Assembly: GCA_032718475.1 (NCBI GenBank)
Contig: JAUCBJ010000521.1
Location: 1 to 43,487, forward strand
Direction of reading: 5' to 3'
DNA from: Nemertoderma westbladi
Taxonomy: Eukaryota; Animalia; Xenacoelomorpha
DNA: 43,487 nucleotides
The translations under genes and the position numbers were made by a program. How positions within the stretch are numbered: position 1 is the stretch's first letter; the number at the start of each line of letters is the position of its first letter. The notes beneath the pieces are model-generated. The model worked only from the letters and a program-made list of their open reading frames with translations, was not told the origin of the DNA and ran no database searches. Shown piece by piece: positions 12,304 to 32,350 of the stretch.

Positions 12304-14204
12304 TATTCGAAGAGACAGTAACAAATACACGAATCCTGCAATATCATACTATAGAGTCTGTGAATCAAAGCATAAATCCGACCTTCTCACCAAAACAGTA
12401 AACTCTAAGTAGGCAAACCTATTGCAGTATCGGTCTCTTATAACCGGTGAGGCAGAAAACAGTCTACGAACGGACAAACTTCGATAAAACAAAATCCCGC
12501 GCAGCGAATCCTAAAATCGGGCTGACTCACTGACGGACTAAAGGCGCTCGTACACTTTGCCGCGGTGTGATTTATATGATGAAAAAGCGCTAGCTACAAA
12601 TATAACCAGCGGGAAAATCAGCAGTGCGAACAAATTATTTCGTATATTTTGAGGTGTAAATAATTCCTAAACGCACGTGTGTTTTTAATTCATAGGTCAA
12701 AATTGATTTTTATCCTTCATATACTCTCATTTACTGGGTCCGGCGTTTATTTTACAAATATTCTAATATTTTGGTAACTTGTAGGTCCAATACTTACAAA
12801 TGACAAGGCTCCTTCCCCCTTTGGTGTATTTCCAGGACTCAAATTCAGGCATAGGGTTAATACTACGCCCAGAATTCGGCAATTTTATCTACCAGGTCCC
12901 TAATACTAAGAAGAAATGTGTTAGTTTACTACTGTAGGCGTACGGTTACAAATAGCTATCCTGGCTCTTATCTGGAATTTTAGTCACCTAGGTAGGCTGG
13001 GTAACTTCCTATCAGGACGTTGGCGGGGACACGGTAGGTGTTAGTATCCCTAATAGCCTTAATTTATTTTCGCCTAGCAATAAACTGCCCTACCGCCTGA
13101 ACGGTATAATCTCAATTCAGAGAAAACACAGCAATCCTCTCCTGGCCTACAAGTTCCAACGCAAGCAATAAACACCGTGTACTGCCGACAAGCCACCAAC
13201 GCACCTATACCTGACAATGAGTTAGGCGTACAGTTTTGCTGCACCCTACCAATGTACATGCCGGGTAATGGTGTGCCTGTGTCCTATCTGCGTACGGGTA
13301 TCTCTGTCTAACTTTCCTTTTCTCCTTCCCCCGTAGGAATATGAAGGGGTTCTGCTGGTCTTCCAAGAATTGGGACAATACAGTTCTTAATTTAAATTTT
13401 TGGCGTACAGTGTGTCGCTACTCCTACCGTCGATCTTAGGTCTTACACTTAGGTAGCGAAGCATCGAACACTGTCTAACCTTCAGGCGATGGGCGAATAA
13501 CTCGAATAGATATTGTGGGCGGTCTCCTGTTCACATTCCCCGATGTTCCCGTTCACTGCTGCGGCCCGATGTCTAGCCGGCCATCCTGTTCTTTAGGGGC
13601 GTTCACCGTGGTGAAGCATAATAAAACAGATAGGAAAAGGCAGATATAACAAGTATTTCTAACTTTTATTACAAAAGATATACATAAACGTAACAAGAAA
13701 CTAATAGATAACTAATCATAGATAGAAGAAGAATAGTATTGGATTGATTGATAACTAATGAACGAAATCGCACCTTATATAGCAAATTTGTGCTGCAATC
13801 AATCGAGAAAATTCTCGATTGTTCTATAAGTTCTAATGGGTTTTTAAAGATAACTATTGGTCCAGCGAATATATAACTTGCACGACATTGGTTACAATCT
13901 AATAACTACAGTCCCATTGGTTAATCTAGGTACAGACAAATGCAATTTAATTTGTAGCGGTCAATTTAAATGAGTTGAAATTCTGTACAAAAGATAATTC
14001 GCACCTACAAGGATTCGAACTCAATACCTACTACATATATAATTTCCAACGCTCTACCGACTGAGCTACTGAACCACTTGAATAATCATCGTACAAATAG
14101 ATATAGTAAATACAAATGAGGACTTAATGTAATCTTTTAGCAAAGTTAATTCGAATAAAATAAAATTTTGAAAATCCACGGCATTTAGAGAATATAATTC
14201 TATA
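12304..14204 (-). repeat. 3' LTR (1901 bp)
   Basis: Matches 30453-32350 from tattcgaagagacag to aatataattctata. By eye at least 5 A/G substitutions and one 20-vs-17-nt block difference. Confidence 0.96.
14001..14075 (-). promoter_or_regulatory. tRNA-derived A-box/B-box (Pol III type 2 promoter-like) module in 3' LTR
   Basis: Minus strand GGTTCAG-TAGCTCAGTCGGTAGAGCG...GAGTTCGAATCC, tRNA-like box spacing, T-run shortly downstream; no acceptor or anticodon stem. Confidence 0.65.
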
Positions 14205-14759
14205 TCGCTCCATGAAAACAGGATATTATCGTGCATAAAATATACGGTTTTCACCAATACTAAATCAAATTATGGAATACTTGGGACGTACTTACATATT
14301 TACAAATTAAATCTCTACAATTACCTCTACATAATAATTCGATACAAAAATAATTACAAATTCAAACTTTACGTATTTAAGGCTTTATTAAGTAAGTACA
14401 ATATAAATATAATTTAAATTCACCAAAATAAATCTATTGCATCTCAAATATTGCATAAATTCAAACAATCACAAATACTAATACTACTTAAATATAAAAC
14501 AAATTGCATAAGTTCGGATAATTTCAAATAAATCACAAGAAAGGCTCACAAGTCTTCCGTCTGCTCTTGCCTTCTATTTACTGTAAATACAAATACTGCT
14601 TCTTTATAAAATATAAATTGCATAATATTCAAACAATAAATTGCGTAAGTTTGGAATGACTACAAATATAGCACTTTCTAAATATAAATCTTTACTAAAT
14701 TGCATAAGTTTAGAATAATACTGCATAAGTTTAGAATAATATAAACTCCTTTTACATCT

Positions 14760-15000
14760 CAAATATGAAATATAAATCTTTCAAATATAAATCTTTCAAA
14801 TATAAATCTTTCAAATATAAATCTTTCAAATATAAATCTTTCAAATATAAGTTCCTTCTAAATATTAAACTTTCTAAATTTCAAAATTGGAACAATACAA
14901 ATACATAAATTTAGAACAATATAAATTGCATAAACTTAGAATAATATAAATTGCATAAATTTAGAACAATATGAATTGCATAAATTTAGAGCAATACAAA
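14760..15000. repeat. AT-rich tandem repeats in the element's 3' UTR (15-bp aaatataaatctttc x4-5; about 25-bp aattgcataaatttagaacaatata x4)
   Basis: Seen directly. Confidence 0.75.
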
Positions 15001-15121
15001 TTTTAAACAATACAAATTACCTAAACAATTCAATTTACATAAACAATACATAAAACAAACATAAAATAAACAATTCACAAGAAAGGCTCACGAGTCTTCC
15101 GTCCACTCCTTCCTTCCCGCT

Positions 15122-16276
15122 TTAACGCTTAGTGGATCGAGCCCTGCCGCGTCCTCGAAAACTGTGTATCGGCGATTTAGCTCGTGATATGGGACTTGTG
15201 GGGCGAGCCACTGGTTTACTTTGGACGTTGAGAGACGGTACAACCGTTTCCTCACATATTCGTCCCTTAGTCATCCCAAATCCTCGTCCAATCCCTCGTG
15301 ACCGATCTGTTGTATCTACCGCTGGTAAAACGTCTGGGAACGCACGGAAAGCGGACGACGCAGACCCAATAGAAGCTTGCGCCCCCTTTTGATCAGCTGG
15401 TATATGTCCCGATCCTCCTTGCGGTTCTCTGGGAAGCGAAACCGTATCCCGAGTAATTCGAATAGTCAGTTCGTATCCCTTTCGTTCTTCAACGTTGATA
15501 GTTTTCTTTAACTGTTGGCCCACTTTCTGGACCCTTATGATCCTACCCTGTCCGTCCTCCCGAGGGTGACGTGCAGACGGCGCGACCGGAGTAGCTGGTA
15601 TGTTGGTCGCCTCTAGGACCTCCTCTTCCTCGAATACGCTCGCTCGTATACGTTTATGGTAGAACGCGGCTCGGTACGCCCATGCGACGGTTAACCAAGC
15701 TCCCTTGTTCCGCTTTTCCGTTCGGAACCGATCAAATTCACCATATGTGATACGATTGACTACTTTCTGGAAGTTCCATGTATTCTTATTGTCAGGGTGT
15801 ATCTGTAACAAATATTCGCGCACAACTCGGAATCCACTATCATGAGGCAAAATATCAACTACCTCGATGAGTTCGTCGTATTGTGGCATAGCGGAGATAT
15901 ATCCTTCCGACATCATAGTTTGAGGATTTACCGCCCAAAATCCAAGATGCGCTCTCATCGGGAACCGTCTTCTTTGCGCTGCTACATGTTCGTCAGCCAA
16001 ATCTTCCCACTCATCAAATAGTTTTCGCACGAGTTTTACAGATTCGTGTTCGTAAGGTATATCTCTCAGTTGGCATTCAGATGCTCGATGTCCCTTTATA
16101 TTGCAGTAAGTGCATTGAGCCATAAATCTCCAGCAAGTATAAAATGTATGGGACCCTTGATCTCCACACCATCCACAGATTAGTTGAGTTGTAGTAATGT
16201 GCTTTCCACTGCACTTTGTCGAATGATGTCCAGCGACACCACATTTACCACACATCGTATTAGCAGGGTACCACAC
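15122..16276 (-). CDS. Accessory protein with three CCHC zinc knuckles and a basic RG/RS-rich C-terminus (possibly the frameshifted C-terminus of the upstream ORF)
   Basis: CGKCGVAGHHSTKC, CGWCGDQGSHTFYTC, CTYCNIKGHRASEC; ends RGRGRARSTKR. Frame open from 16309; first ATG at 16255. Confidence 0.75.
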   Translation of the reverse strand: MWYPANTMCGKCGVAGHHSTKCSGKHITTTQLICGWCGDQGSHTFYTCWRFMAQCTYCNIKGHRASECQLRDIPYEHESVKLVRKLFDEWEDLADEHVAAQRRRFPMRAHLGFWAVNPQTMMSEGYISAMPQYDELIEVVDILPHDSGFRVVREYLLQIHPDNKNTWNFQKVVNRITYGEFDRFRTEKRNKGAWLTVAWAYRAAFYHKRIRASVFEEEEVLEATNIPATPVAPSARHPREDGQGRIIRVQKVGQQLKKTINVEERKGYELTIRITRDTVSLPREPQGGSGHIPADQKGAQASIGSASSAFRAFPDVLPAVDTTDRSRGIGRGFGMTKGRICEETVVPSLNVQSKPVARPTSPISRAKSPIHSFRGRGRARSTKR

Positions 16277-16287
16277 TCGCTCATATA

Positions 16288-18846
16288 TTAGATCGCCAAT
16301 CGGATCAGACTATAACAGATCAAACTATAATCATAATCGTCTGGATCAATAGGTTGGTATGTTTCAGAAGGTTGTATGCAAACTACAGCATCTGTTGCTT
16401 CTAATTGTCGAATCTCCGTCTGAGATTTCTTCGGGAGGTTCCTTTCAATCTCAAGAAGTTCCTCTAAAGGATCATCGATGGCCGTCGTTACTTCGAAATC
16501 ATCACCTAAGTGACCGATAGGCGCACGCGTCTGCCGTGATTCGTCCGTAAGCTCCACGATACGTTCTCCTTCATAGGGTAACAATGTAAACATAGATGGT
16601 CTTTCGATAAGAGATCCCGCACAGCGAAGATACACGTCTCGAAATATACTAAATCCTGCTCGAGTGAAGGCATTACACTGAGCGTCGGAATTGTAGAAGG
16701 GTTCGAGAAACCGTCTAAACACATCGGTATGAATTCTCCCTTCCGCGTAGAATGTATGATCTTCTCCGAGGCAAAGTGGATGTATTTTAAGAGTCCGAGA
16801 CACAATGTCAGCGACTAAGCAAACATTCACTGATGACTCTATCGCTAAATAATATTGTAGTAACGCTCTTGGAGGTGAAGTAATAGCCCAATATACGCAT
16901 CCTCTCCATTTGAGCTGTGATTCAAACTCATTTATATCTGGAGTATCACCTTCTCCATACGTTTCGATATACTTTGTTCTTTTACTTTCCTTATAATCCC
17001 AATTAAACATCAAGTAGGAAATATATTCAGTTCCGGTTTTCTGAGTATCATACTCACGGAAGTATCCTTGTTCTATAGACCACAGTATAAGAGGTCGAGT
17101 GTCGACGTAAGGTGTCGGTAGTCTGTCGTCACTGTCCGACATGCCGGCGAAGTCGCTAATTAAGTCCTCTCTTACTCCTGATCCAATCTTTACAACAGTT
17201 TTATCTAAAATCATATTTCTCACTGTCTTTGGTAACATTCTAGCATCGATATTGCAAGCCTGGTCCATTTTCTTTACTATATTAGTGATGAACTGGTGCC
17301 GCTTTGTAGTTCCTGGAGGTATCGGCATTCGCTTGTCGCTCCTTTGTCTACTGAAAACGTGCAAAACTCCGTCTGCCGCTCTAATTTGTATAGTCTTGGA
17401 GGTTAGACTCTGCTGATGGCTGCCGCCCTCGTTATCATAAAACATGTAACCGTTTTCCTGAAACGATCTAAACGTCCTATTCCATTCGTCCAATAATTCT
17501 TCCGAAGGTTGCCAAATCTTCTCTATGTCTTTCTCGTCCTCGAAACGAATGACTTTACCTTGCCAGTCTGCAGCGATATCTGTATCCGACTCAAAGGTTC
17601 CTGTTCCAATCCATAAGCGAATTGTTTTGGTTAAATATCCTTTCAGGTTACTCGGAGCTATATCAGCGCCAGCTCTATCCAGTTCCCTAAAGTCTTGAAT
17701 ATGAGGCGGAACATTATGCACAACCTTTTGCGTAATATGTCTACGTAAATCGTATATCTTAACCATATCGCTTAGAACAACTGCAGGAAGAAACTCTAAG
17801 TTCGAAATGATTTCCGGATGATCCACAATAGGTATTTCATACGTTGTATCTTGTCGAACTGGTATACTAATAGGGAAATTGAGTGTCGTACTCAATGGTT
17901 TCGTAGTTGAAGTACTATACGGTTGCATTTCTCTTGTCCTTTCCGGGGATGCAATCTGTAGTCTCTGAATAACGTTTTGAGCAAAGTTTATACTCTCGAA
18001 AACTTCCGGTGTCATCTCCTTAGCTGAAGTTTGATTGTGTGACGTCCAATGGTAAGGTAGGATCGCGAGTCTTCCGCCCCATTCTTCCATCTCACCTTTC
18101 TCGAAAGCCTTGTAGGCTCTGTATAGGCTGAGAGCTTCTTTCTTTTCGCGGGTTGACTGAGTCGCCTCGTCCAGCGTAAGTTCGAATACATCGGGTTCAA
18201 CAACCTTAGGTGGGTAAACGACAATTTCTCCCGCCTTTGGTCCAGTCATAGCGAATGAATGATATGGATTCGATAAAGGATACCCTCCTTCCTGGTAGCG
18301 TAGTTGTTGATGGTTCGAACACCTCGCCAATATCGGTTCGGGATTTTCCTTATTCAAACGCATCGGAATCGCATTTCGTTGTTCGCGCATACAAGATCCG
18401 CATTGATAATAAAGTTTATAAACTGAAAATGCTTCCTTTGTTTCTCTATCGTCCCCTCGAGTTCGTCTGTAAAGATGCATTCCATCGAATTCATCACGTA
18501 CCGCAGGCATAGGTTCGTGTGCTTTTAGGTATTGCATAGTATGATACAAACGACTAATTTCGGTATCGGGATCTTCGCTAATATCTCCCGTATCACATAA
18601 AGCGTCGTACGGGTAAAGTTCATTGAAGGTTTTGCGTAAACTTTCGATTCTTTCATTTAACGCGTTTTGCCTTCTCTTTATTACATTCGAGTCATATTTC
18701 GTCTTTGCGAGTTTCGCTGTACTTTCTGATAAATCTTTTATACCAAATATAGTGTAATCCTTAGCTCCAAATCGTTCGAATGGCGCTGCTGCTTCCTCTT
18801 GGATATCATATCCCCATCTCGGCTCTCCTTGTATCCCTTTCGCCAT
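16288..18846 (-). CDS. Accessory 852-aa protein with a putative DEDDy 3'-5' exonuclease domain (WRN/EXD/Mut-7-like)
   Basis: Intact ATG-started ORF. Motifs in order: MFYDNEG (ExoI), TIQIRA, LPKTVRNMILDKTVVKIGSGVREDL (ExoII), YVDT, W...P...QYYLAIES (ExoIII-like, D replaced by E). N-terminal CGSC...CSNH. Confidence 0.72.
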   Translation of the reverse strand: MAKGIQGEPRWGYDIQEEAAAPFERFGAKDYTIFGIKDLSESTAKLAKTKYDSNVIKRRQNALNERIESLRKTFNELYPYDALCDTGDISEDPDTEISRLYHTMQYLKAHEPMPAVRDEFDGMHLYRRTRGDDRETKEAFSVYKLYYQCGSCMREQRNAIPMRLNKENPEPILARCSNHQQLRYQEGGYPLSNPYHSFAMTGPKAGEIVVYPPKVVEPDVFELTLDEATQSTREKKEALSLYRAYKAFEKGEMEEWGGRLAILPYHWTSHNQTSAKEMTPEVFESINFAQNVIQRLQIASPERTREMQPYSTSTTKPLSTTLNFPISIPVRQDTTYEIPIVDHPEIISNLEFLPAVVLSDMVKIYDLRRHITQKVVHNVPPHIQDFRELDRAGADIAPSNLKGYLTKTIRLWIGTGTFESDTDIAADWQGKVIRFEDEKDIEKIWQPSEELLDEWNRTFRSFQENGYMFYDNEGGSHQQSLTSKTIQIRAADGVLHVFSRQRSDKRMPIPPGTTKRHQFITNIVKKMDQACNIDARMLPKTVRNMILDKTVVKIGSGVREDLISDFAGMSDSDDRLPTPYVDTRPLILWSIEQGYFREYDTQKTGTEYISYLMFNWDYKESKRTKYIETYGEGDTPDINEFESQLKWRGCVYWAITSPPRALLQYYLAIESSVNVCLVADIVSRTLKIHPLCLGEDHTFYAEGRIHTDVFRRFLEPFYNSDAQCNAFTRAGFSIFRDVYLRCAGSLIERPSMFTLLPYEGERIVELTDESRQTRAPIGHLGDDFEVTTAIDDPLEELLEIERNLPKKSQTEIRQLEATDAVVCIQPSETYQPIDPDDYDYSLICYSLIRLAI

Positions 18847-18874
18847 TATTAGAGGTAATGGTTACATAATCATA

Positions 18875-18908
18875 CTACTAGAGGGAATACAACAGAGTTT
18901 ATTATTAG
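18875..18908 (-). promoter_or_regulatory. Putative 3' splice acceptor for the accessory-ORF mRNA
   Basis: Minus strand CTAAT...CTCTGTTGTATTCCCTCTAG|TAG about 30 nt upstream of the ATG at 18846. Confidence 0.55.
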
Positions 18909-19505
18909 TTGTGAGGAGATGTGAGAGTTTTCGTCTGCCCTTTTGGCTCGACAACGCTCTAACCTCCAACCCATAGCCTAAGATCTAAGGTTTCTTTAGT
19001 GACACACTGTCTTATCTAAAATTTTTTGCCGAAATAAAAACGAATTTGGGCTAAACTGGCTGTGAGTCTAAAATACTCACTTTTTGATCCCAAACTATTA
19101 TCAGAAAATAAGCAATCAAGAGTTAGTAATAAATATAGGGAAGTCTATTTATTGACGTAACTTATTGAAACAAGACCGTGTAAAATTTAATTAAATTTTA
19201 AGAAAGGCTCGCAAGTCTTCCTTTCTTGTTTCTCTAATTTTAAGTTCCACCCGACTGTACCCTGAAATCTATTCACTGGAGAAAATTTTAAAAATTTTTC
19301 AAATCCAAATGGATTGTCTAAAATTTCGAAAATGTCTCAATATTGTGAGTTCCAAGTAGAATTCCATTTCTTATACCTACAAATCCCGCTCCTATGTGAC
19401 ACATAAGGGTACTACCCTCAATGTTCACATATAAAGACAATGGAATTCTACCGCTGTCCTTACTACGGTGTACAGGTACGTGGAAATCTATTTGTAAACT
19501 CCTTA

Positions 19506-21373
19506 CTATTTACTAACATTTGTTGGAGACTTGTAATCTCCAGACTCGTTTCGCGTCTCTTCAAGAAGTACGAGACGTTGTGTCGGTCTGTCTACTGTAC
19601 GACCGTCAATTGTCCGTACAGTCACAGTTCTTGTCACTCCATCCATAGATGGATGTGTGTCTAGAATTACACCTGTTATCCAGAAGCGTCTTTTTAGATT
19701 CACTTCTGCTAATAGCACATGATCTCCCGCTCTTAAAGCGCGAGTATTGTTGTACCAATTTGTTCTGGCAGAAATAGAGGGCAAATAGTGATTTTGCCAT
19801 ATTTCCCAGAATTTGTTAGCTAGTAGTTGCGTGATTTTCCACGCTTTTCTACCGTAGCTGTCGCCTTCTATTGGAATAGAAATAGGCATTAATGTAGTCG
19901 GTGCCTGCATAAGCAGGTGTGCCGGTGTCAAAGCAAACTGGGATTGTTTGTCATCGGGTACTAATACTATTGTTCTAGTATTTAGTATTGCCTCGATTTC
20001 AACAAACAATGTTGTCAGTTGGTCGTCTGTCAAGATGTGGTTTACTGGAATTACCTTTGCCATGGCTGTTTTTATAGATCTAATCAATCTCTCCCATACT
20101 CCGCCTCTCCAAGGACTGTCTGGAGGATTAAACTTCCAAACAATCTTGTAAGGACGTAGTTCGTTTGAGATTTGATCATGATCTAATTTCTTAAAGGCTC
20201 TAGCAATTTCATTTCGAGCACCAACAAAGTTTGTACCTTGGTCTGAGTGCAAGCATTTTACTAGTCCGCGTCTAGCGATAAATCGCCGCAATGCTAGTAT
20301 AAACGCGTTGGTGGAAAGATCCATCACACGTTCAATATGAACTGCCCTACTGGACATACATGTGAAAATCAGTCCCCAGCGTTTCACTAGTATACGTCCA
20401 CGTTTCATATGTATGGGACCAAAGCAGTCAATTCCAGTCTCTGTAAAAGGTGGTCTGAATGCTTGAAGTTGTGCTTGTGGAAGTTCACTCATTTCTTGGG
20501 TACCTATTCTAGAGTGTACCTTTTTACAAATAATACACGTACGTGTCACTGAACTTAACGCTTTACTGGGTCTAATTAATACAAATCTTGTACATAAGTA
20601 GGAAAGACAGTGATGTCTTCCAGCGTGTTTCAGATGTAAATGTGCGTCCAGTATCATTGCACGTTGTAATTCGTGATGTTGCGGTATTATTATCGGGTAC
20701 CTAAAATTTGTGTTAAAGTCAATGTTTTGAAGCCGAGATTTATGACAAATTAAGCCATTATAAATTATCGGACTCCAACTCAATATTGGTGACGACTTGA
20801 TTGGTTGACCTTGACTTATAGATGTGAATTCGCGCGCGAAATATCGCAATTGATAATGGCGAATTAATTTAATTTCTCACCTGTCAATCTCGGTCAATGT
20901 GAGTCGACATGTAAAGTCGCGTTTGCCTTTGACGTATTGTACAAAACGTACAATCCACGCTAATTTTCGGCACGCGTTGGTCCAAGAATCTGTTAGGTTT
21001 ACAATACGGTCGACGTAAGTATTTGTGACGTCATCAGGTAAGTCAATGGAGAATTTGGAAGGTTTTGATTTACTAGATGGGCCCACGAGTCCGCCGGTAG
21101 GTATTCCCTTGTTGACTGTTGATCCGTCCGGGTCTACGAGTAATTTGTCCTTCTTTGTTTTCTTACCTTGATTGTCAGTACTTTGTAAGTCGATCGTTAA
21201 TGGTGGTTTGAACTCTATGGGATCACTGGGTTTCGGTAAACTTATTTTTCTGCCGATATTAATCCCAGGTCTCACCGTAGGTTGTAAGGTTGGTATGTCT
21301 CTTGAGCGTAAAGTAACACCTGTATTTACATTTGCGTAGGTACTACCCACATCTGTAATACATGAGGTTTCAC
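19506..21373 (-). pseudogene. pol: Pol C-terminal part: linker plus integrase, with in-frame TGA at 20877-20879
   Basis: HHCC (AHLHLKHAG...CIICKK), DDE core (GIDCFGP, SDQGTNF, GGVWERLI) and BEL-type C-terminal domain (W..GVILDTHPSMDGVTRTVTVRT...RPTQRL). ORFs 20877.. and 19506.. share one frame. Confidence 0.92.
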
Positions 21374-22614
21374 TGTGCTTATGGTTACTCAAGAGTGTTC
21401 GCTTGTGTACTTTTGGGCTCCTCCCCGAGGCGCACCCACGAGGCGGACACCTTTCCACCACCCTTGGGGCCAGTCCGACAGATGTTATTATCAGACCGGG
21501 CCGGAGGGTGGCCTGATGCTTCCCGGGTTCTGTTTTCGGTCCCCCGATCACACCAGCACAGCTCGTCGAACGTGTAGCCAGATGGGCGGCTACTGTCAAC
21601 TTACTGTGGCCTGACTGTACATTGAGCCAACTCAAAGTATAACAAAGAGTCAACCGGCAGGTGGACCAGTCGATAGCGATCGAGCACCAAGGACGCCCTT
21701 GGGCCTAACCGACGGTCTTGTCCCATGTGGGCTTGCGCTACCCAACATGGAATTTTGACTCGTTTTCACCTGCCTCGCCGGCAGTATTTAAAAAACAATA
21801 CTGTCTGTAGCTCAAAAGCTACTGAACAAGTAACCACTTACCAGTCACTGTACACGTGTACTCAACAGATGTTCACGAAATCAAGTACACAACGGTAAGC
21901 ACAAAATCGAACACATACCATGCACACACAGAGACATAATCGGGAAAGACAAAATCGGGGTCAAAATTGAGAGGACAAATTGTATCGACCAACCACCAAG
22001 TCGAGAGTACCTTATTTTACCGACAGGGTAAAATAACTTTGTGTGCACAAAGTTATTTTACCGACAGGGTAAAATAACTTTGTGTGCACAAAGTATGCTG
22101 GGGTGCAGTAAAGTATGGTCCTACTAATACCAGCGGCGTCTGGTCCAACTGGCAAGGGTTCCCATACCCACTCGCAGTGGCCACACATACAATCACGTGT
22201 ACTCACGTACCCACAGCAACAGAAAACTCAAGACCCGACGGTTTATTCCAATGCCACCAAAGACCAAGTCAGCTGAACATGGAGACAATAACATATAGTA
22301 TCAAAAAAAAAAAAAAACAGCTGACGGTCAATGGAACCATCCAAGCCCCAAGCAAACTGCCACTGATCGCCCACATACAAAACATAGTTCACGCCACATG
22401 AACCACAAATCACGCCATGCCACCACCCCTACTGTGTACAGGACTGGCAGTACGGCAACAGGCCGACTAGGCGATACCACGGCACCATGGCAATTCATGG
22501 TTCGTTAGACACGAGGGCCTTCAGTGACTCCCTAGCACTATACTACCAATTTTAACGTGCCCCCAGCCCCTCACGAGTCTGCCGCCGCCTGTTAAACTCA
22601 CCCCTATAGAGACC
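21374..22614. mobile_element. Unclassified 1.24-kb insertion in pol
   Basis: Breaks the pol frame between RNase H and integrase, with a change in strand composition. Flanked by tcac at 21370-21373 and 22615-22618. Internal 41-bp palindromic duplication and an A15 run. Boundaries are inferred. Confidence 0.55.
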
Positions 22615-25600
22615 TCACCTCTTTGGGTAAGTTTGGTAGTTTGTCAATACAAGGCCGCTCCAATAGGGAAACTGTGGCTTTACTATGTGTCGCTACATTA
22701 CTAATGTCTGGTAGAACATTTTGTGACATGTCTGGTAAAATGTTTCGCGGAACATCCGGCGAAATATCTAGTGACATGTCTGGCAAAACGTCTGGTTGAC
22801 CGTCTAGTAACGCGTCTGGTTGTTTGTCATTAGAAGGCTGCTCCAATAGAGAAACTGCGGCTTTACTATTTGTCAATATGTTACTAGTGTCTGGTAGAAC
22901 ATTTTGTGACATGTCTGGTAAAATGTTTCGCGGAACATCCGGCGAAATATCTAGTGACATGTCTGGCAAAACGTCTGGTTGGCTGTCTAGTAACATGTCT
23001 GGTTGAGCGTCTGGCGATATGTCTGGTTGAGAAAGGCTCGCAAGTCTTCCTGCCCTAACTTTGTGAGTTATATTCTTCCATTTCGCCTTTGGTTTCTTCT
23101 TAAGTTTCGCCGTTGTCTTTTTCTTTGCTTTACCTTTCTTGGGTTTTTTAATTTCGGCGTCCTTAGGGATAGTATTAGACTTGTTATCGTAAAGTGGTGG
23201 CCAATGTTGTACTGATCTTTGCAAGAATTGTGGTCCGTGTTGCCAAAATTTCTTGTTTTCCGGTTTACAGAATTCCTCAGGCATCATTCCTCGTGACGCA
23301 ATATCAGCTGGATTTTGTGGTCCGGGACAATGTCGCCAATCTTCCTTTATTGAACGGTCTAGAATTTCTGCACGACGGTTAGCTACGAATGTCTTGAATT
23401 CAAGTGTATCGTTGTTTATGTAAAATAAAACCAACGTCGCGTCAGTCCAATAAAATATCTGTAAACTTGACTGTAATTCCGTCTGTATAAGGTTCACGAT
23501 TGTGGTTGACAGGGTTGCGGCTTGTAGCTCAGCGCGTGGTGTCGTCATATACTTAGTAGGCATGGTCTTAGCCTTAGAAGTAATGAGCGAAACATCAAAC
23601 TCGTCTGAGTCTACTTGTCTGCGCAAATACGCTGCCACACCAAAGCCGTTGTCACTGGCGTCTGAAAAACAATGTAATTCTAAGTTGTCAGGAAATGTCG
23701 TCTGTAATGGAAAGTACACCCGGGGTATGGAATAATCCTCTAGCGAAGATAATTGTGCCTCCCAAGTCTTCCATAAGTCCACTTGTTCGGATGAGATCGG
23801 TTCGTCCCATGTCAGTCCATCTTTCCAAATACTGCGCATGTAAATTCGTGCTTGCAGTATTATTGGGCTGATGAAACCTAATGGATCGAACAGTCTACTT
23901 AGTTTCGACAAGCAAGACCTCTTTGTCAGAGAATCCCCTTCAGCGTCCAGTTTTACTTTCACTCGAAAGTTGTCTGTGTTCGGGTCCCAAAATAGTCCCA
24001 ACACCTTGGTCGTCGGCAGTGGTTCGAACTCTAAGTCAATATCACCACTCCCACGTTCAGTCGTTCCGAATGAATCTACCAATTCGGCACTGTTTGAGGC
24101 GAACTTGGTGAGGTTAAAACCTCCGCCTGCTAAACAGTCCCGTAATTGATGTGCTACGGTGATAGCACGTTCTACTGTATCACAACTTTGTAACCCATCG
24201 TCTACGTAAAAGTCTCGTTCTACGATCTCGATTATCTCTGGGTCATATATATGTTTCTGATCCCTAGCGGTCTGTTTTAGGGCGTACATAGTGCAGTTTG
24301 GGCTGTCCCTGGCACCGAAAACGCGAACTTGCATTTGGTAAGTCGCCGGTGGCTGACTTAAGTCTCCATCCGGGTACCAGAGGAACCTCAAACTGTCTCT
24401 GTCTCGCTCTAACGCTCGCACTTGGTGAAACATCGCTTCTACGTCACAAGTAAATGCTACTTGGCGCTGACGGAAGCGCATAATCACCCCCATGAGATAA
24501 TTATTCATGTTTGGTCCATCCATCAACTCACTGTTGAGAGACATTCCTTCAAACAGGGCCGCGCAGTCGTTAACTACGCGTACTTTATCAGGTTTGTCGG
24601 GGTGTCTCACATAGTGATGTGGCAAGTAGTATGTCTGGTCTGTCACAATCTCTGGGTTAGTCATCCTGATAGCGTACCCTTTTGTCAAATACGTCTCCAT
24701 CTGAGTATTGTACTGCAGATGGGCTTTCTCGTTCTTTAATAGACGTTGTCGTATTGAGTGTAGACGTCTTAAGGCTAGCGGATAATTATTGATAAGTTTA
24801 GGGCTTTGGCTACGCCATAGCATCCCTACCTCATAATGTCCGTCTTTCGTCTGGCGGATAGTATCTTCCATGATCTTCAAAGATTGTTTCTCTTGTTCCG
24901 ACATACACGGTTCATAACTACCGGGTTCTGCTGTATCTTGTTCTAACCACCTGATAGTTTTCTCTGTTAACTCTTTGTCCAGTGCAGCTTGTTCCACTTG
25001 ATGGTTTCTTAACGCGTCATCATCGACGGGCGTTGTTGAAGTTATTGGTGTAGATAGACTCGCAAGCCTTCCGGCGTTATCATCTGTCGTCGATGGAACC
25101 TCTGCCTGACTCGTCTTCTTCTCATGCTCTATACTAACCGTGTGGATTGGCTGCTCTTTGTGACTTATCATATTTGCTACACACGTCGTACTCGTAAAGT
25201 TGTCGTGTTTCGTCGAACGTAGTGTAGTGTAGTCTATGTCAGGTGAAAAGGAATGAATCGAAGTTGTAGTTAGTAAACTACATGTACTTTGTACATCGTC
25301 TTCCTCATCACTTATATCCAGTGTGCGCACAGGCGCTCGAGTATACCACCCTATCGGAGTTCTACAGGCGTAAGCGTTTCCCGCTACAACTACCGATGGT
25401 CTGGTTTCCCACACTTGATGTAGGTTGAATTGGTCCGTCCCGATCAGCATTGCTACTGACCTATAGTTGACAGGACATTCAGGTACACCGAGGTGTCTGA
25501 AATACTTACGGTCTTCTAAAGATTGCTCTGGGACTGGACCTAGTAGGTTACTAAAGTCCTTTGTGGCCGCAAAAGTCAAATCCTTAAAAGGTAACAAAGA

Positions 25601-28600
25601 CCTCTCCTTCTCGCTATGTTGCGATTTTGGAAGAAGAGTGTCCAAGTTTAACTTAACTCGTGTCACTGGTATTGCACGTTGTCCATGCATACTACTTACG
25701 GTGTAACTGACATTCTTACCTTGTCGGAGATCCGTCACAACATCAGCTACCTTCTCATCCACATAGCTGTGAGATGAGGCTGAATCCAAGATAGCGTAGA
25801 TCCGTTTGCTCCCCTTTGTGCCCGTAATCTTGACAGGAATTATACTAAACCCCTTTAGTTGATCAGGCGTCAGAAGCGCAATCGATGGTTGTTCGTCTCC
25901 AGTATCTAAGTAAACGTCGTCGTCTTCCGACTCTTTATCCGACGATCCTGATTGTTCCGAGAAGCAATCTCTAATGTGCGTCACGAATGTCGGTGTTGTT
26001 TTCGACTCTCTACCTTTATATGCTGTGTTGCATCTTGCTGCCGCTTCTGGGTGTTCCCTGGTGAAGCGTTTGGTCGGCGTATGGCTGTCTGTATGGAGCA
26101 AGCCGTCGTGGTTGCGTCCACAGTAAGGACAGGTGTCAGTATTTGGGCAGTCCTTACGGACGTGTCCATGTAGCGTACACCGCCAACAAGAATCCAAAGG
26201 CCGTATTTGCAGTCGTCGTTCCTCCGAGTTCAATTCGCGGAATAGTCGACATCCCTTTAAGTTGTGGCTAGTATGTCGCTTACCAATTCGTTCGCAATAT
26301 TGGCAACCGCTGAAGTCTGTGCTCAGTTGCTGTTGGGTCTGTTTGGTTCCAATGGGTGCGGATACCTTATTACCGTCCGAAAATTGTCGGGTGTCGGTCG
26401 ATGTTGCGTAGGTAACCGTCTTTGTAGATGTCGTTGATGGTTTCTGTCTGTTTGATGAAGGTAGTGTGATTCCTTCCGCCACAATATGTTGGTCCGTGTA
26501 GTTCGAACGCGTCTCGACTACTGCCTCTCTGGATATCAGTAAGTAGACGTCTTCCAACTTCAAGAATCCGCCTCTCTCTTCTCGCTGATATTCTATCTTT
26601 CGCCACTCCCGACGAAGTCGATGGTGCAATCTTCCTATTATTTTCAATAGGACTGTCGGAGTGTTCGCGTAGTCAAGTTGTCCAATCGAACGTAGTGTAG
26701 TAATGGCGTTCTTAATCTCGTCAGCTAATTTCAGTAAGTCAACGGGTTTTGTAATAGCCCCTCCCTTACAGAGTTCTTCTATCACTGACTTAGCCATACT
26801 TACGGTGCCTCCGTAAATCGATGTTAAGCGATCGTACGCTAATTCGAAGGCATCTGGTACACCAACAAAAGTCTCCGCTAGACGTTTCGGTTCTCCCGAT
26901 AATGTTTGGAGCAGGTAGTTGAATTTCTCTCTCGATGTAAAAGCACACACAGCGATCTGAGATTCGATGTAGTCTACAAAGGTGTGCCAATGTTTAGAGT
27001 TCCCGGAAAACTTAGGTGGTTGTTGCACCGGTAGTCCTTGTCTAGCTGCGAATTTCGCTATTTCTTCTGCAACGTTCAAAGTTTCGCGTCCTTGGTTGGT
27101 GATCTGGTTGGTGTTCTCTCTTCTAGGCGCTTTTCTTTGATACGATGTGTTGGTCGATGGTATTTGTCTTTGCGGAACTTTTGGATTTCTATTGTGCTCG
27201 AATTCGGAATTTCTCGAACTGTCAGTGTGAACTTCCTCCAAGCGTTCCTCTATCTGGGCCAACTTGTTGACAACTGGCCTCAGAATGTCGGCAAATTGTT
27301 GAGTACTGATTGCGTCCGTTGGTTGTAACGCCTTTTGTGTTGGTGTATTCTGTGGAGGATTGTCAATAAATGAATTATCCGAACGCTCACGTTTACATTC
27401 GTCGGCCGCTCCTGTTCTAAATACCTCGCGTTCCGGGTAATCCGACTCGCTTGAAGTACTACTGTCGCCTGGATACGGTGGACGACGTGCTCGTGTCCGT
27501 TGCGTCGTTCGAATTCTAACATTCCGTTTCGGAACATCGTCTACTGGTCTCCGTTGTTCGGTAGGCTCGCGGGTCTTCCTCGAAGTCGTAGATTGCGATG
27601 TAAACTGGTTAAACGGTCGCGTATCCACTGGTCTCCGTTGTTCGGTAGGCTCGCAGGTCTTCCTCGAAGTCGTAGATTGCGATGTAAACTGATTAAACGG
27701 TCGCGTATCCACTGGTCTCCGTTGTTCGGTAGGCTCGCAGGTCTTCCTCGAAGTCGTAGATTGCGATGTAAACTGGTTAAACGGTGGTCGAGTGACAGCG
27801 TTTGAATCTAAAGGCCTTGTAGGCCTAAACGTCATTGGGTATGTGTAGTGCGTAACGGGTTTTGGTGTCGAAGGTGGACTCACCTGTTTTGTTGTTATCA
27901 GTGCAGGTCCGGTCAATAAACTACTACAATCTGTAATCGGTGGGTTACTTACCTTGACTTTCAGAATAGGCGACGACATTGCTCTTGGCGGTACGAACTT
28001 GTCCGGAATAATAAACCTGTGTTCCGTCGCACCATGGATAGGAGAAATATTACTACTACCCGCAATCGAAACAGGTTCCTTAGTCGTAACTGGTGCAAAC
28101 ATAGGAGTTACTTGAGGGAATCTTTGACATAAGTCTTTAACTAGTTGTCTTTCTCGCCCAGGTGCCCCTACACTTCCTTCCTTCATTCGTTCCTGAATTT
28201 GGCGGTGCCTTACCTCTATCTGGTCCAAATCATGTCCGTCGTTAGATCTCATCGATCGATCGCGGGCTAGAAGATCCAGATTTTCCTTGGCTTCGGCTAG
28301 TTCTCTCGCCTTCCTTTCGAGTTCGAAATGAAGTTTAACTTCCTTCTCGCGTTGTTCCGTCTGTTGTTGTTGCGCCTCGAACTCCGCTTGTCGTATAGCT
28401 GATTGAGCCTTTATTTGCCGTTTTTTCAACTCGGCTCGTGCTTCCGAAGCTCGCCTTTGTTCGTCTAATGCTGCCGCTGCCGCTTGTCGTTCCAACTCAA
28501 CTGCTGCCGCTTGTCGTTCTAACTCAGCCGCTGCCGCTAACGCTGCCGCTGCCGCTTGTCGTTCCAACTCAGCTGCTGCCGCTTGTCGTTCCAACTCGGC

Positions 28601-29644
28601 TGCTGCCGCTCGTTGCGCTAACTCAGCTGCCGCTGTTCTTTGTGCTATTTCTAGCTCCAACCTTTCCATCTCAGCCGCTTCCAACTCGGCTTGTTCTTGC
28701 AGATGAGAGATTCTCGCAACATTTGCAACGCGTAGCTTCTCTTCCTCTACAGCTGCTTGTACAGTTAACAATTGAGTTTGTTCTTCCATTTCTCGTTGTT
28801 GTCTGTGGTACAGTTGTTGCTGTCTAGAAATTTCTGACGTCACTATACTTACCTCGCCAATTTCGCTGCGAATACTCACTAACGATTGGTCCAGTATTTC
28901 CGGTGCCGATTCGATTTGTACGGGTAAAGTTCCCCTCGTATATTCCGGCACGGTTTCCAAATCGCCGACGTCTTCGCCGCACATACGTAAGTGATCCGTC
29001 AGATGTTTCAGTTGTCCATCCAGTCGGTACAGTTCCTGTTCTTCCTCGGGCTGTAATAACTCGTCGGAAACCGACTCACCTAGCAACTGGTCCGCTTGTT
29101 CCTGTTGTATCTGTCTAACGGTCGTCTTAAACTGAATCAGTTTCTCTCTAGCGATCATTAGTTTCTCGAGGATTCTAAACTGTGTGTCCATATCCTGTCT
29201 CTGTCTAGCTAGATCTTGTAGACCTATTAGATTATCTACGGACTTATGTACTCTATTCTGTACTCTCACCTGTAGAGTGTAGAACTCGAATCGAGACATC
29301 GGAGCGGTCAACTCGTCTAATATGCGTTGGCCTTCTCCAATACTCCTAGTAATATGCGCCATGTAACCTCCGACGCTTCTAACCACACTTTCTGTGCTTC
29401 CTACTGAACTTATCATGTCCGTTTCCCTATATCTAGGTTGCGGGACCGTTAGAAAATCCTCGGTCCTGCCGTCGCCTCGTACTACGGCATCCGGTACTCC
29501 CGTTGGATGTACTGGTGACGCGCACGGTGTAGGTTCGGTAGGCTCACGAGTCTTCCCCTGTGGTTCTTCCGCTTCTGACTTATCCGCGTCACATGAGTCA
29601 TAGTCGGTTTGTGTATTCTTCGTATAGTCTTGTTTGTCACTCAT
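22604..29644 (-). CDS. gag-pol: BEL/Pao Gag-PR-RT-RNase H polyprotein, truncated by the insertion
   Basis: Gag PKFSGNSKHWHTF...EKFNYLLQTLSGEP; three Cys/His clusters; protease AILDSASSHSYV; RT YLPHHYV, KVRVVNDC, DVEAMFHQV, FGARDSP, FYVDD; RNase H LHCFSDAS, PRAELQAA, WTDA, NPADIASRG. Confidence 0.95.
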   Translation of the reverse strand: MSDKQDYTKNTQTDYDSCDADKSEAEEPQGKTREPTEPTPCASPVHPTGVPDAVVRGDGRTEDFLTVPQPRYRETDMISSVGSTESVVRSVGGYMAHITRSIGEGQRILDELTAPMSRFEFYTLQVRVQNRVHKSVDNLIGLQDLARQRQDMDTQFRILEKLMIAREKLIQFKTTVRQIQQEQADQLLGESVSDELLQPEEEQELYRLDGQLKHLTDHLRMCGEDVGDLETVPEYTRGTLPVQIESAPEILDQSLVSIRSEIGEVSIVTSEISRQQQLYHRQQREMEEQTQLLTVQAAVEEEKLRVANVARISHLQEQAELEAAEMERLELEIAQRTAAAELAQRAAAAELERQAAAAELERQAAAAALAAAAELERQAAAVELERQAAAAALDEQRRASEARAELKKRQIKAQSAIRQAEFEAQQQQTEQREKEVKLHFELERKARELAEAKENLDLLARDRSMRSNDGHDLDQIEVRHRQIQERMKEGSVGAPGRERQLVKDLCQRFPQVTPMFAPVTTKEPVSIAGSSNISPIHGATEHRFIIPDKFVPPRAMSSPILKVKVSNPPITDCSSLLTGPALITTKQVSPPSTPKPVTHYTYPMTFRPTRPLDSNAVTRPPFNQFTSQSTTSRKTCEPTEQRRPVDTRPFNQFTSQSTTSRKTCEPTEQRRPVDTRPFNQFTSQSTTSRKTREPTEQRRPVDDVPKRNVRIRTTQRTRARRPPYPGDSSTSSESDYPEREVFRTGAADECKRERSDNSFIDNPPQNTPTQKALQPTDAISTQQFADILRPVVNKLAQIEERLEEVHTDSSRNSEFEHNRNPKVPQRQIPSTNTSYQRKAPRRENTNQITNQGRETLNVAEEIAKFAARQGLPVQQPPKFSGNSKHWHTFVDYIESQIAVCAFTSREKFNYLLQTLSGEPKRLAETFVGVPDAFELAYDRLTSIYGGTVSMAKSVIEELCKGGAITKPVDLLKLADEIKNAITTLRSIGQLDYANTPTVLLKIIGRLHHRLRREWRKIEYQREERGGFLKLEDVYLLISREAVVETRSNYTDQHIVAEGITLPSSNRQKPSTTSTKTVTYATSTDTRQFSDGNKVSAPIGTKQTQQQLSTDFSGCQYCERIGKRHTSHNLKGCRLFRELNSEERRLQIRPLDSCWRCTLHGHVRKDCPNTDTCPYCGRNHDGLLHTDSHTPTKRFTREHPEAAARCNTAYKGRESKTTPTFVTHIRDCFSEQSGSSDKESEDDDVYLDTGDEQPSIALLTPDQLKGFSIIPVKITGTKGSKRIYAILDSASSHSYVDEKVADVVTDLRQGKNVSYTVSSMHGQRAIPVTRVKLNLDTLLPKSQHSEKERSLLPFKDLTFAATKDFSNLLGPVPEQSLEDRKYFRHLGVPECPVNYRSVAMLIGTDQFNLHQVWETRPSVVVAGNAYACRTPIGWYTRAPVRTLDISDEEDDVQSTCSLLTTTSIHSFSPDIDYTTLRSTKHDNFTSTTCVANMISHKEQPIHTVSIEHEKKTSQAEVPSTTDDNAGRLASLSTPITSTTPVDDDALRNHQVEQAALDKELTEKTIRWLEQDTAEPGSYEPCMSEQEKQSLKIMEDTIRQTKDGHYEVGMLWRSQSPKLINNYPLALRRLHSIRQRLLKNEKAHLQYNTQMETYLTKGYAIRMTNPEIVTDQTYYLPHHYVRHPDKPDKVRVVNDCAALFEGMSLNSELMDGPNMNNYLMGVIMRFRQRQVAFTCDVEAMFHQVRALERDRDSLRFLWYPDGDLSQPPATYQMQVRVFGARDSPNCTMYALKQTARDQKHIYDPEIIEIVERDFYVDDGLQSCDTVERAITVAHQLRDCLAGGGFNLTKFASNSAELVDSFGTTERGSGDIDLEFEPLPTTKVLGLFWDPNTDNFRVKVKLDAEGDSLTKRSCLSKLSRLFDPLGFISPIILQARIYMRSIWKDGLTWDEPISSEQVDLWKTWEAQLSSLEDYSIPRVYFPLQTTFPDNLELHCFSDASDNGFGVAAYLRRQVDSDEFDVSLITSKAKTMPTKYMTTPRAELQAATLSTTIVNLIQTELQSSLQIFYWTDATLVLFYINNDTLEFKTFVANRRAEILDRSIKEDWRHCPGPQNPADIASRGMMPEEFCKPENKKFWQHGPQFLQRSVQHWPPLYDNKSNTIPKDAEIKKPKKGKAKKKTTAKLKKKPKAKWKNITHKVRAGRLASLSQPDISPDAQPDMLLDSQPDVLPDMSLDISPDVPRNILPDMSQNVLPDTSNILTNSKAAVSLLEQPSNDKQPDALLDGQPDVLPDMSLDISPDVPRNILPDMSQNVLPDISNVATHSKATVSLLERPCIDKLPNLPKEVRSL
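22640..23005. repeat. 183-bp (61-aa) in-frame duplication in the RNase H-integrase linker
   Basis: QPDxLLDxQPDVLPDMSLDISPDVPRNILPDMSQNVLPD occurs twice; offset 22731 to 22914. Confidence 0.85.
27543..27785. repeat. 84-bp (28-aa) tandem repeat x3 in gag
   Basis: PFNQFTSQSTTSRKTxEPTEQRRPVD three times. Confidence 0.9.
28468..28636. repeat. About 30-bp AAAAELERQ repeats in the gag coiled-coil region
   Basis: Seen in DNA and translation. Confidence 0.8.
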
Positions 29645-29687
29645 TTCGGTAGTTGCAAGTCAAGTAAAGTGAGTGTCAAAGTATCAA

Positions 29688-29695
29688 ACTTACCG
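29688..29695 (-). promoter_or_regulatory. Putative 5' splice donor upstream of gag
   Basis: Minus strand CG|GTAAGT about 50 nt before the gag ATG (29644). Confidence 0.55.
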
Positions 29696-29729
29696 TATTT
29701 ATATAAAAACGGTATTAATTACAGTCATA

Positions 29730-29860
29730 TAAAATTAGCCTACTGGCCGATTTTATAGCAAATGGATAAAATTAGCCTAAACGGCCAATTTTACAGCAAA
29801 TAAATGTCACGGATTAAGTATATAATAAAATTAGCCTACCGGCCAATTTTACAACAAATA
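29730..29860 (-). repeat. Three related hairpin repeats in the 5' leader
   Basis: Sense AAAATTGGCC-loop-GGCTAATTTT-like units x3. Confidence 0.7.
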
Positions 29861-30439
29861 AATCAGATAACGATATACGTTATCAAAAGGTAGATTAAAT
29901 ACAATAATACGGACTAATTCAGCAATAAACAAAGAAATCGTACGGAATGCATAAATACTTGAGACAGTGGAACCCACAATAATTTTAACTAATACGGTAA
30001 TGCCTAACTTATTTATGCAACTTTTCGAACTCACCCCCTCCAATGATTCTCCAGAAAAACAGATTCCCAGATACAAACCGGACGTGAACCTTTCCGTTTC
30101 CAGCGTTGCGGACGAAGTGCGATTTTCCCAACCAAAATTGTTGAGTTATCTATCTCCCAAACTTGCTAAACACGGTCTTGCTCTCGTTACAGTCTAGAAA
30201 TGAGCTCTGAATACTGAAAAACAAAAGAGTTAGGTTTTACTTTTACGAAAATTTTGTACCGGTACAATATGGTATTTAAACCCTTTTAAACACCGGTATT
30301 CAATTCCAAAATTTTTACACGCGTTTCAAATCAAAATTTTGTTTCAAAATATCAGCACTTAGCTAATCAAATATAAATTTTTACCTCAAAATACAAAATT
30401 TTCAAATAATTTTGTTCTACTGAACCGTAGTTCAGAAGA

Positions 30440-30452
30440 TTCATATTCCTAC
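30440..30452 (-). other. Non-tRNA primer-binding site candidate (GTAGGAATATGAA)
   Basis: Abuts the 5' LTR end, lacks TGG, and is the exact reverse complement of LTR 31494-31482 (13345-13333 in the 3' LTR). Confidence 0.65.
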
Positions 30453-31919
30453 TATTCGAAGAGACAGTAACAAATACACGAATCCTGCAATATCATACTA
30501 TAGAGTCTGTGAATCAAAGCATAAATCCGACCTTCTCACCAAAACAGTAAACTCTAAGTAGGCAAACCTATTGCAGTATCGGTCTCTTATAACCGGTGAG
30601 GCAGAAAACAGTCTACGAACGGACAAACTTCGATAAAACAAAATCCCGCGCAGCGAATCCTAAAATCGGGCTGACTCACTGACGGACTAAAGGCGCTCGT
30701 ACACTTTGCCGCGGTGTGATTTATATGATGAAAAAGCGCTAGCTACAAATATAACCAGCGGGAAAATCAGCAGTGCGAACAAATTATTTCATATATTTTG
30801 AGGTGTAAATAATTCCTAAACGCGCGTGTGTTTTTAATTCATAGGTCAAAATTGATTTTTATCCTTCATATACTCTCATTTACTGGGTCCGGCGTTTATT
30901 TTACAAATATTCTAATATTTTGGTAACTTGTAGGTCCAATACTTACAAATGACAAGGCTCCTTCCCCCTTTGGTGTATTTCCAGGACTCAAATTCAGGCA
31001 TAGGGTTAATACTACGCCCAGAATTCGGCAATTTTATCTACCAGGTCCCTAATACTAAGAAGAAATGTGTTAGTTTACTACTGTAGGCGTACGGTTACAA
31101 ATAGCTATCCTGGCTCTTATCTGGAATTTTAGTCACCTAGGTAGGCTGGGTAACTTCCTATCAGGACGTTGGCGGGGACACGGTAGGTGTTAGTATCCCT
31201 AATAGCCTTAATTTATTTTCGCCTAGCAATAAACTGCCCTACCGCCTGAACGGTATAATCTCAATTCAGAGAAAACACAGCAATCCTCTCCTGGCCTACA
31301 AGTTCCAACGCAAGCAATAAACACCGTGTACTGCCGACAAGCCACCAACGCACCTATACCTGACAATGAGTTAGGCGTACAGTTTTGCTGCACCCTACCA
31401 ATGTACATGCCGGGTAATGGTGTGCCTGTGTCCTATCTGCGTACGGGTATCTCTGTCTAACTTTCCTTTTCTCCTTCCCCCGTAGGAATATGAAGGGGTT
31501 CTGCTGGTCTTCCAAGAATTGGGACAATACAGTTCTTAATTTAAATTTTTGGCGTACAGTGTGTCGCTACTCCTACCGTCGATCTTAGGTCTTACACTTA
31601 GGTAGCGAAGCATCGAACACTGTCTAACCTTCAGGCGATGGGCGAATAACTCGAATAGATATTGTGGGCGGTCTCCTGTTCACATTCCCCGATGTTCCCG
31701 TTCACTGCTGCGGCCCGATGTCTAGCCGGCCATCCTGTTCTTTAGGGGCGTTCACCGTGGTGAAGCATAATAAAACAGATAGGAAAGGGCAGATATAACA
31801 AGTATTTATAATATACATATTCTATATACATAAACGTAACAAGAAACTAATAGATAACTAATCATAGATAGAAGAAGAATAGTATTGGATTGATTGATAA
31901 CTAATGAACGAAATCGCAC

Positions 31920-31928
31920 CTTATATAG
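31920..31928 (-). promoter_or_regulatory. Candidate TATA box of the LTR promoter (CTATATAAG; 13774-13782 in the 3' LTR)
   Basis: Consensus-like TATA followed about 20-30 nt later by Inr-like TCATT/TTAGTT/TCAATC. Confidence 0.45.
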
Positions 31929-32146
31929 CAAATTTGTGCTGCAATCAATCGAGAAAATTCTCGATTGTTCTATAAGTTCTAATGGGTTTTTAAAGATAAC
32001 TATTGGTCCAGCGAATATATAACTTGCACGACATTGGTTACAATCTAATAACTACAGTCCCATTGGTTAATCTAGGTACAGACAAATGCAATTTAATTTG
32101 TAGCGGTCAATTTAAATGAGTTGAAATTCTGTACAAAAAATAATTC

Positions 32147-32221
32147 GCACCTACAAGGATTCGAACTCAATACCTACTACATATATAATTTCCAACACTC
32201 TACCGACTGAGCTACTGAACC
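32147..32221 (-). promoter_or_regulatory. tRNA-derived A-box/B-box module in 5' LTR
   Basis: Copy of 14001-14075 with one substitution. Confidence 0.65.
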
Positions 32222-32350
32222 ACTTGAATAATCATCGTACAAATAGATATAGTAAATACAAATGAGGACTTAATGTAATCTTTTAGCAAAGTTAATTCGA
32301 ATAAAATAAAATTTTGAAAATCCACGGCATTTAGAGAATATAATTCTATA

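Follow-up and report, generated by a model that had tools for sequence, protein, structure and literature searches.

A giant BEL/Pao retrotransposon of Nemertoderma westbladi, likely primed by its own long terminal repeat and carrying two additional open reading frames

Introduction

How does a long terminal repeat (LTR) retrotransposon of about 18.8 kb begin reverse transcription when it lacks the usual primer-binding site (PBS) for a tRNA, and what do the genes that it carries beyond gag and pol contribute? These questions are raised by an element on contig JAUCBJ010000521.1 (GenBank assembly GCA_032718475.1) of the xenacoelomorph Nemertoderma westbladi, of which we analysed one stretch of 43,487 nucleotides (nt), hereafter the window. 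The element belongs to BEL/Pao (Belpaoviridae) and occupies 20,047 nt of the minus strand (12304..32350), its length of 18.8 kb being what remains when an insert of about 1.2 kb is subtracted. Published BEL/Pao elements measure 4.2–10 kb, with LTRs of 0.2–1.2 kb and a tRNA primer site (PMC8742986; PMC3118150, excerpt). A preliminary description of the locus had proposed that an exonuclease encoded by the element trims its RNA into a primer.

Priming by an element's own RNA is known from Tf1, in which the transcript's first 11 bases pair with the PBS and are cut off by RNase H (excerpts of PMC7175516 and PMC4600332), and self-priming has been defined by an LTR complement of at least 10 bases directly after the 5' LTR (PMC6317226, excerpt). 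Open reading frames (ORFs) of the DEDDy exonuclease class follow pol in the rotifer LTR elements Juno and Vesta, their function not having been demonstrated (PMC5408684). On balance, we lean towards the view that this giant BEL/Pao element is primed by 13 nt of its own LTR RNA, freed by RNase H, and that its two extra genes are a separate, RNA-handling cargo.

Results

A primer site complementary to the element's own LTR

No TGG follows the 5' LTR, in agreement with the earlier statement that a tRNA-type PBS is absent, and the 13 nt at this position are the exact complement of LTR nt 857–869 (Table 1). The LTR-internal 13-mer noticed previously is thereby borne out: complementarity of this length to the LTR occurs at this site only among 16,223 internal positions, the 13-mer is the only LTR complement of at least 8 nt to the primer site, and 2 of 5000 Markov-shuffled LTRs contained a 13-nt complement. 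The pairing geometry sets the 3' end of the primer at the LTR edge, and the element thus has the feature that defines Tf1-type self-priming, an LTR complement to the bases adjoining the 5' LTR. A primer built by splicing is not needed here, the match being contiguous, and a degenerate tRNA-like unit in the LTR was rejected as primer because the unit and the primer site are not complementary.

In a folding model the helix between 13-mer and primer site has a probability of mostly ~1 for RNAs that start up to 100 nt upstream. A weak TTTAAA lies at −51 from the 13-mer and TATA-like boxes at −316 to −334 and −433, while the 13-mer itself bears TCATATT, which we take to be initiator-like; as signs of a promoter these motifs are ambiguous. 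Poly(A)-like signals occur at +265, +582 and +644, with AATAAA at 13068–13063 and 12751–12746; the former had been placed correctly, the latter one base off.

Self-complementary primer sites in related families

Relatives were sought by scanning metagenome contigs with a 26-sequence reverse transcriptase (RT) alignment, and the best 80 of 517 confirmed stretches gave 79 loci (L001–L079) in 45 families; RT searches of viral contigs returned no loci. The primer-site count covers the 13 families in which the LTR end is fixed by repeat and flank, the 32 without a definable LTR end being excluded. Twelve of the 13 have a self-complementary primer site of 10–15 nt. A first pass found a self-complement of 10–15 nt at offset 0–4 in 10 of 12 families, each exceeding all 150 shuffles; L021, whose LTR end was set by eye, has 11 nt (equalled by 1 of 150 shuffles) and L035, added after inspection, has 14 nt (0 of 150). 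L067 was counted as the miss: the donor is altered in its 5' LTR and one half of the primer in its 3' LTR. When anchors were shifted 25–95 nt downstream as a control, 1 of 88 trials reached at least 10 nt. Scanning 35 more loci without an anchor yielded at least 10 nt in 11, a figure that has no null and is excluded from the count.

The primer site pairs directly with the family's own LTR in L003 and L032. Eight families (L013, L014, L037, L041, L056, L058, L066 and L076) pair only across a GT..AG junction within the LTR, with predicted introns of 76–164 nt, and L021 and L035 likewise pair only across a splice junction, which makes ten families of the junction type and two of the direct type. 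The letters of the primer site vary between families, tracking in each case the family's own LTR. In L014 a TATA box stands 31 nt before the primer, which puts the primer where the transcript probably has its 5' end. Judged from sequence, the present element together with 12 of the 13 families suggests that self-priming extends over a wide branch of BEL/Pao, often by way of a splice junction.

These relatives are about 7 kb long, and where the gap was measured the integrase ends 82–261 nt before the 3' LTR. The 852-amino-acid (aa) ORF that holds the putative exonuclease had no tblastn match in the 79 loci, most of which are short, such that its absence is firm only where a 3' LTR is present; the neighbouring 377-aa ORF had only five weak matches among them (E 0.06–0.44). 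Since cargo-free relatives carry it, the self-complementary site predates the cargo and does not need it. In a midpoint-rooted tree of 57 RT–RNase H segments, built with no outgroup, the element's branch is long and joins L003, L014, L035, L017, L048 and a Lineus protein in one clade (support 0.987), and the first three of these are all self-complementary. The preliminary description had coupled primer to exonuclease and had named self-complementary relatives without the ORF as the finding that would tell against this; the cargo-free families of about 7 kb are such relatives, and with self-complementarity in 12 of 13 families and the ORF matched in none of the 79 loci the coupling is not supported, leaving self-priming as the part of that interpretation that survives.

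Two additional genes downstream of integrase

The 852-aa ORF, earlier called a DEDDy-like exonuclease, has no significant match in Pfam, NCBIfam or PHROGs or by hmmsearch, and no homologue by phmmer among 1.84 billion representatives, in a word index (with words from the first 500 residues only), among PDB sequences, or in viral contigs, prokaryote contigs or plasmids. What upholds the assignment is remote fold similarity along two independent lines. In an Atlas feature search of residues 430–730, PF01612 was common to 24 of 30 matches with a score of 0.92, the top three matches being unnamed clusters and scores of 0.9 arising by chance at a rate of 4–10 in 100. By hhalign, a profile of 40 bacterial PF01612 domains aligned over 159 columns with a score of 26.2 (E 0.002), which none of 60 shuffles reached (maximum 20.1). 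In a MAFFT alignment D471 and E473 (ExoI) and D561 (ExoII) fall on invariant columns; the candidates for ExoIII, Y630–D634 or Y666–E670, are ambiguous, and the motif is atypical or misplaced. A single-sequence structure model reached a predicted local distance difference test (pLDDT) score of 30, and a model built with the 40 PF01612 sequences, which is thereby partly circular, showed a confident ExoI–ExoII core (mean pLDDT 60.9) and, with the same circularity, matched EXD2 best (E 2e-5), followed by RICE1, NrnC, RNase D and Egalitarian. The traits that define the DEDDy class, an RNase D/WRN-like fold with ExoI and ExoII, are thus present with moderate support, and residues ~440–700 likely adopt a predicted, remotely related DEDDy/RNase D-like fold. 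Residues 1–430 received no assignment from the Atlas search and include a Cys/His cluster at 149–179. A splice-acceptor-like site at 18878 lies ahead of the ORF.

The 377-aa ORF is, as had been described, an open CCHC frame: its N-terminus holds three zinc knuckles (CX2CX4-5HX4C), and the homologue search found no homologue of it. Its frame also stays open through the final codons of the 852-aa ORF (16255–16309), and access by reinitiation or frameshift is possible. Contigs of sequencing run X1, mostly 80–95% similar, span the majority of bins in the cargo region, and the cargo is therefore probably a family trait.

A dispersed, strand-specific motif

The internal region contains 10 copies of a 16-nt motif against 0.02 expected, for a pattern drawn from the copies themselves. 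In an unbiased k-mer test the top 11-mer occurred at 7 separated sites, compared with at most 5 in 12 shuffles and 4–5 in eight relatives, and all six top k-mers belong to the motif. The dispersed RNA hairpin of the preliminary description is therefore confirmed as a motif, the hairpin itself being weak (−1 to −5 kcal/mol, with a YGYG loop). Within ORFs the motif is translated in two different frames, which suggests selection at the nucleotide level. One of the 79 related loci has a single copy of it, and the exact matches in prokaryote and viral collections are single ones that we take as chance. An 11-base partial copy is found within the insert, near 22580.

Membership of BEL/Pao and size

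Between its LTRs the element has the order protease (PR), RT, RNase H (RH) and integrase (IN) with BEL-type domains, as required of BEL/Pao, and it resembles this group in its Gag-PR-RT-RH-IN order, DUF1759, Peptidase_A17, DUF5641 and 5-bp target duplication. Among the 120 matches listed, RT–RNase H is 38–44% identical to BEL/Pao proteins, and the named matches come from molluscs, echinoderms, cnidarians, a fish and a nemertean; it also groups with BEL/Pao proteins in a comparison comprising BEL/Pao references only, with no non-BEL outgroup or named sub-clade references. The RT is not that of a Ty3/gypsy chromovirus of the Tf1/sushi clade, its domains being BEL-type. The International Committee on Taxonomy of Viruses (ICTV) describes the family as tRNA-primed (PMC8742986), and the element lacks the descriptive traits of that account, a tRNA-complementary primer site and a length of 4.2–10 kb: it has no TGG, a self-complementary site and 18.8 kb. 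Its membership is unaffected, because this rests on RT and domain order. Compared with published BEL/Pao elements it differs in its 18.8 kb (the unusual size noted earlier), its 1.9-kb LTRs, the lack of a tRNA-type primer site, its TA..TA ends and its two non-env cargo ORFs. The element is large, yet no record among LTR elements by the 20-kb threshold for internal regions (PMC6431247, excerpt).

Discussion

We propose that the 13-mer would lie in the transcript's 5' part, or close to it, and pair with the primer site some 1030 nt downstream; the element's RNase H would then probably cut it at its 3' end, by analogy with Tf1, so that copying would start at the LTR edge and strong-stop DNA would jump to a 3' R reaching as far as one of the AATAAA signals downstream. 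This Tf1-like route is favoured because it requires no enzymes beyond the element's own and agrees with the cargo-free relatives, and we are fairly confident that priming is independent of the cargo. More tentatively, the DEDDy-fold and zinc-knuckle proteins could be made from a subgenomic RNA. They would bind the long genomic RNA, or process it, and the repeated hairpins may be where they do so; the purpose would be its export, its packaging or its protection. Such handling of the long RNA is the most likely role of the cargo and anti-silencing comes second, both being much less certain than the priming.

Several observations weigh against this proposal. In the folding model the helix probability is 0 for an RNA starting 300 nt upstream, and a good TATA box is found only 433 nt ahead of the 13-mer, the TTTAAA at −51 being weak. 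The predicted strong-stop DNA is about 1 kb compared with 87–203 nt in relatives, among which a TATA box at the Tf1-like position is seen in only 1 of 10 (L014), and TGG occurs near the LTR end in L013 and L035, where tRNA priming is possible. No close relative with both cargo and known primer site was found among the loci. The exonuclease match is not significant by hmmsearch, nor by hhalign against either subfamily profile alone, WRN-like or RNase D (14 of 60 and 3 of 60 shuffles attained the score), the ExoIII region has a pLDDT below 50 in the structure model, and only co-occurrence ties the cargo proteins to the motif.

Other readings divide over the primer and over the cargo. The trimming model of the preliminary description, in which the 13-mer within the 3' R would hybridize with the primer site and the exonuclease would digest the RNA from its 3' end as far as the duplex, leaving a primer, draws on the AATAAA signals 265 and 582 nt downstream, which probably place the 13-mer in R, on the presence of the ExoI and ExoII acidic residues, and on an LTR 3–6 times longer than those of relatives, with which the mechanism may have changed. 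The same pairing without the gene in 12 of 13 related families argues otherwise, as does the atypical or misplaced ExoIII; moreover, a poly(A) tail and hundreds of bases would have to be removed, and the 3' R acceptor for first-strand transfer would be lost. We consider trimming highly improbable, and an exonuclease-made primer system is probably not there. A host RNA, whether a tRNA half or another small RNA, might prime instead, the LTR 13-mer being a regulatory switch or a relic that occludes the primer site; the family is tRNA-primed according to the ICTV, and half-tRNA primers without TGG exist in other elements (PMC6317226, excerpt; PMC10886601). For a fixed host RNA, however, one would not expect site letters that track each family's LTR, ten times over an exon–exon junction, and this reading appears improbable.

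With self-priming as we propose it, the DEDDy protein could also be a predicted anti-silencing nuclease by which small RNAs of the host would be trimmed or destroyed, and its partner, the zinc-knuckle protein, would then serve to target the RNA. The fold class takes in MUT-7-like small-RNA enzymes, a role in silencing has been raised for the rotifer ORFs (PMC5408684) and the adjoining ORFs suggest joint expression, but the dispersed motif is left unexplained, and we regard this as a possible though rather unlikely role. In similar measure doubtful is a more elaborate picture, in which the lineage doubled in size by gaining an RNA-handling kit whose Egalitarian-like and zinc-knuckle proteins read an eight-site hairpin barcode to export, transport or package the RNA, within a wider BEL/Pao group that has mostly splice-assembled primers. 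Least probable of all is a neutral reading, in which the two ORFs were captured as passengers without function and the motif arose incidentally through local duplications: neither ORF has a homologue in our searches and 3 of 10 motif copies fall within one tandem repeat, and yet both frames are open though pol is broken twice, diverged copies from run X1 cover most of the cargo region, and the motif keeps to one strand and is translated in two frames.

Returning to the self-primed element with separate cargo, it shares the LTR complement with Tf1/Tf2/Tj1, Tf1/sushi and Tcn1 (Ty3/gypsy) and with TAR (copia), and differs from Tf1-type elements in its superfamily, in a primer-to-site distance of about 1 kb and in having many relatives with a candidate splice-junction primer. 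Juno and Vesta (gypsy-like, of bdelloid rotifers) and Terminons likewise carry an RNase D-like ORF of the DEDDy class behind pol, its acidic motif altered (PMC5408684; PMC6431247, excerpt); compared by description, the present case differs in being BEL/Pao, in having the domain inside an 852-aa protein with an unassigned N-terminal half and in the zinc-knuckle ORF that follows. The exonuclease-homology module of Egalitarian binds stem loops, including the I-factor signal (PMC13186709, excerpt), and Cer1 encodes its own RNA export protein, CERV (PMC10309623, excerpt). Both are functional analogues only: Egalitarian ranks below EXD2 in the fold search, and the hairpins here are much shorter. Helenus terminal-repeat retrotransposons in miniature have tRNA-like RNA polymerase III boxes in the LTR that are, as here, not complementary to the primer site (PMC10886601), but Helenus is short and non-coding, whereas the unit here is degenerate and followed by a T run.

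In the literature searched, which did not extend to supplements, subscription journals or Repbase, neither self-priming nor DEDDy cargo was found for BEL/Pao; there, self-priming was described only for Tf1/sushi, Tcn1 and copia groups (PMC6317226, excerpt) and DEDDy cargo only for rotifer elements, and the term PBS is absent from the Sinbad and mollusc papers (PMC554778, PMC6238403). With this element, DEDDy cargo is added to BEL/Pao as well as to the gypsy-like and Penelope-like groups, and the dispersed RNA motif is a concrete candidate ligand for DEDDy-type cargo. Self-priming across this wide branch, often by way of a splice junction, would if true couple reverse transcription to host splicing and release the elements from control by tRNA fragments.

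Anatomy of the element and its surroundings

The element copy is young, as previously stated, its LTRs being 99.16% identical; 7 transitions and a single block of some 20 nt set them apart. This block has 17 bases in one LTR and 20 in the other (~31805–31825 and ~13660–13680), and resembles a templated repair patch. Both LTRs have the termini TATAG...GAATA, that is, TA at each end instead of TG..CA; in the relatives L032 and L056 the LTR ends are TG..TA. The gag-pol polyprotein contains tandem repeats of 84 nt and 183 nt. Because the insert and an in-frame stop codon at 20877–20879 break pol, this copy is defective. A related contig of run X1 skips the insert, which has no match elsewhere in the window or in L001–L079.

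Table 1. Coordinates of the element's features within the window
Feature	Position	Strand	Remarks
Target-site duplication	12299-12303 and 32351-32355		5 bp, ATATA; within 24-28-nt satellite
5' LTR	30453..32350	-	1898 nt, TA..TA ends
Degenerate tRNA-like unit in upstream LTR part	32145..32221	-	A box, B box, T run; read from sequence
LTR 13-mer, candidate self-primer	31482..31494	-	LTR nt 857-869; second copy 13335-13347; C4 and G5 runs flank
Primer-binding position	30440..30452	-	13 nt, directly abuts 5' LTR, no TGG
Gag-protease-RT-RNase H polyprotein	22607..29644	-	DUF1759, Peptidase_A17; truncated at insert
Insert breaking pol, ~1.2 kb	~21400..22630		Plus-strand A run, 41-nt palindromic tandem repeat
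Remaining pol: linker, stop, integrase	19506..21399	-	H2C2, rve, DUF5641
852-aa cargo ORF	16288..18846	-	Behind integrase; open frame
377-aa cargo ORF	15122..16255	-	Open; basic tail
Dispersed 16-nt motif, 10 copies	14543..29556	-	All sense strand, all internal
Motif start positions	29556, 27747, 27663, 27579, 25072, 23050, 19221, 18075, 15100, 14558	-	8 independent sites
Purine tract ahead of 3' LTR	14205..14213	-	Short, degenerate; read from sequence
3' LTR	12304..14204	-	1901 nt, TA..TA ends

The tRNA-like unit has a second copy in the 3' LTR (~14000–14075), and neither ARAGORN nor Rfam called it; its first ten bases reappear shortly downstream of the primer site, which may be coincidence. 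The satellite of 24–28 nt that forms the insertion site occupies 8710–12303 and 32354–32627 of the window, and a 45-nt tandem array lies at ~1600–5500. Frames of non-LTR retrotransposons are found on the minus strand on either side of the element, with an endonuclease and an RT at 36519–40360 and, at 6846–8245, a stretch that includes an RT fragment (6846–7736).

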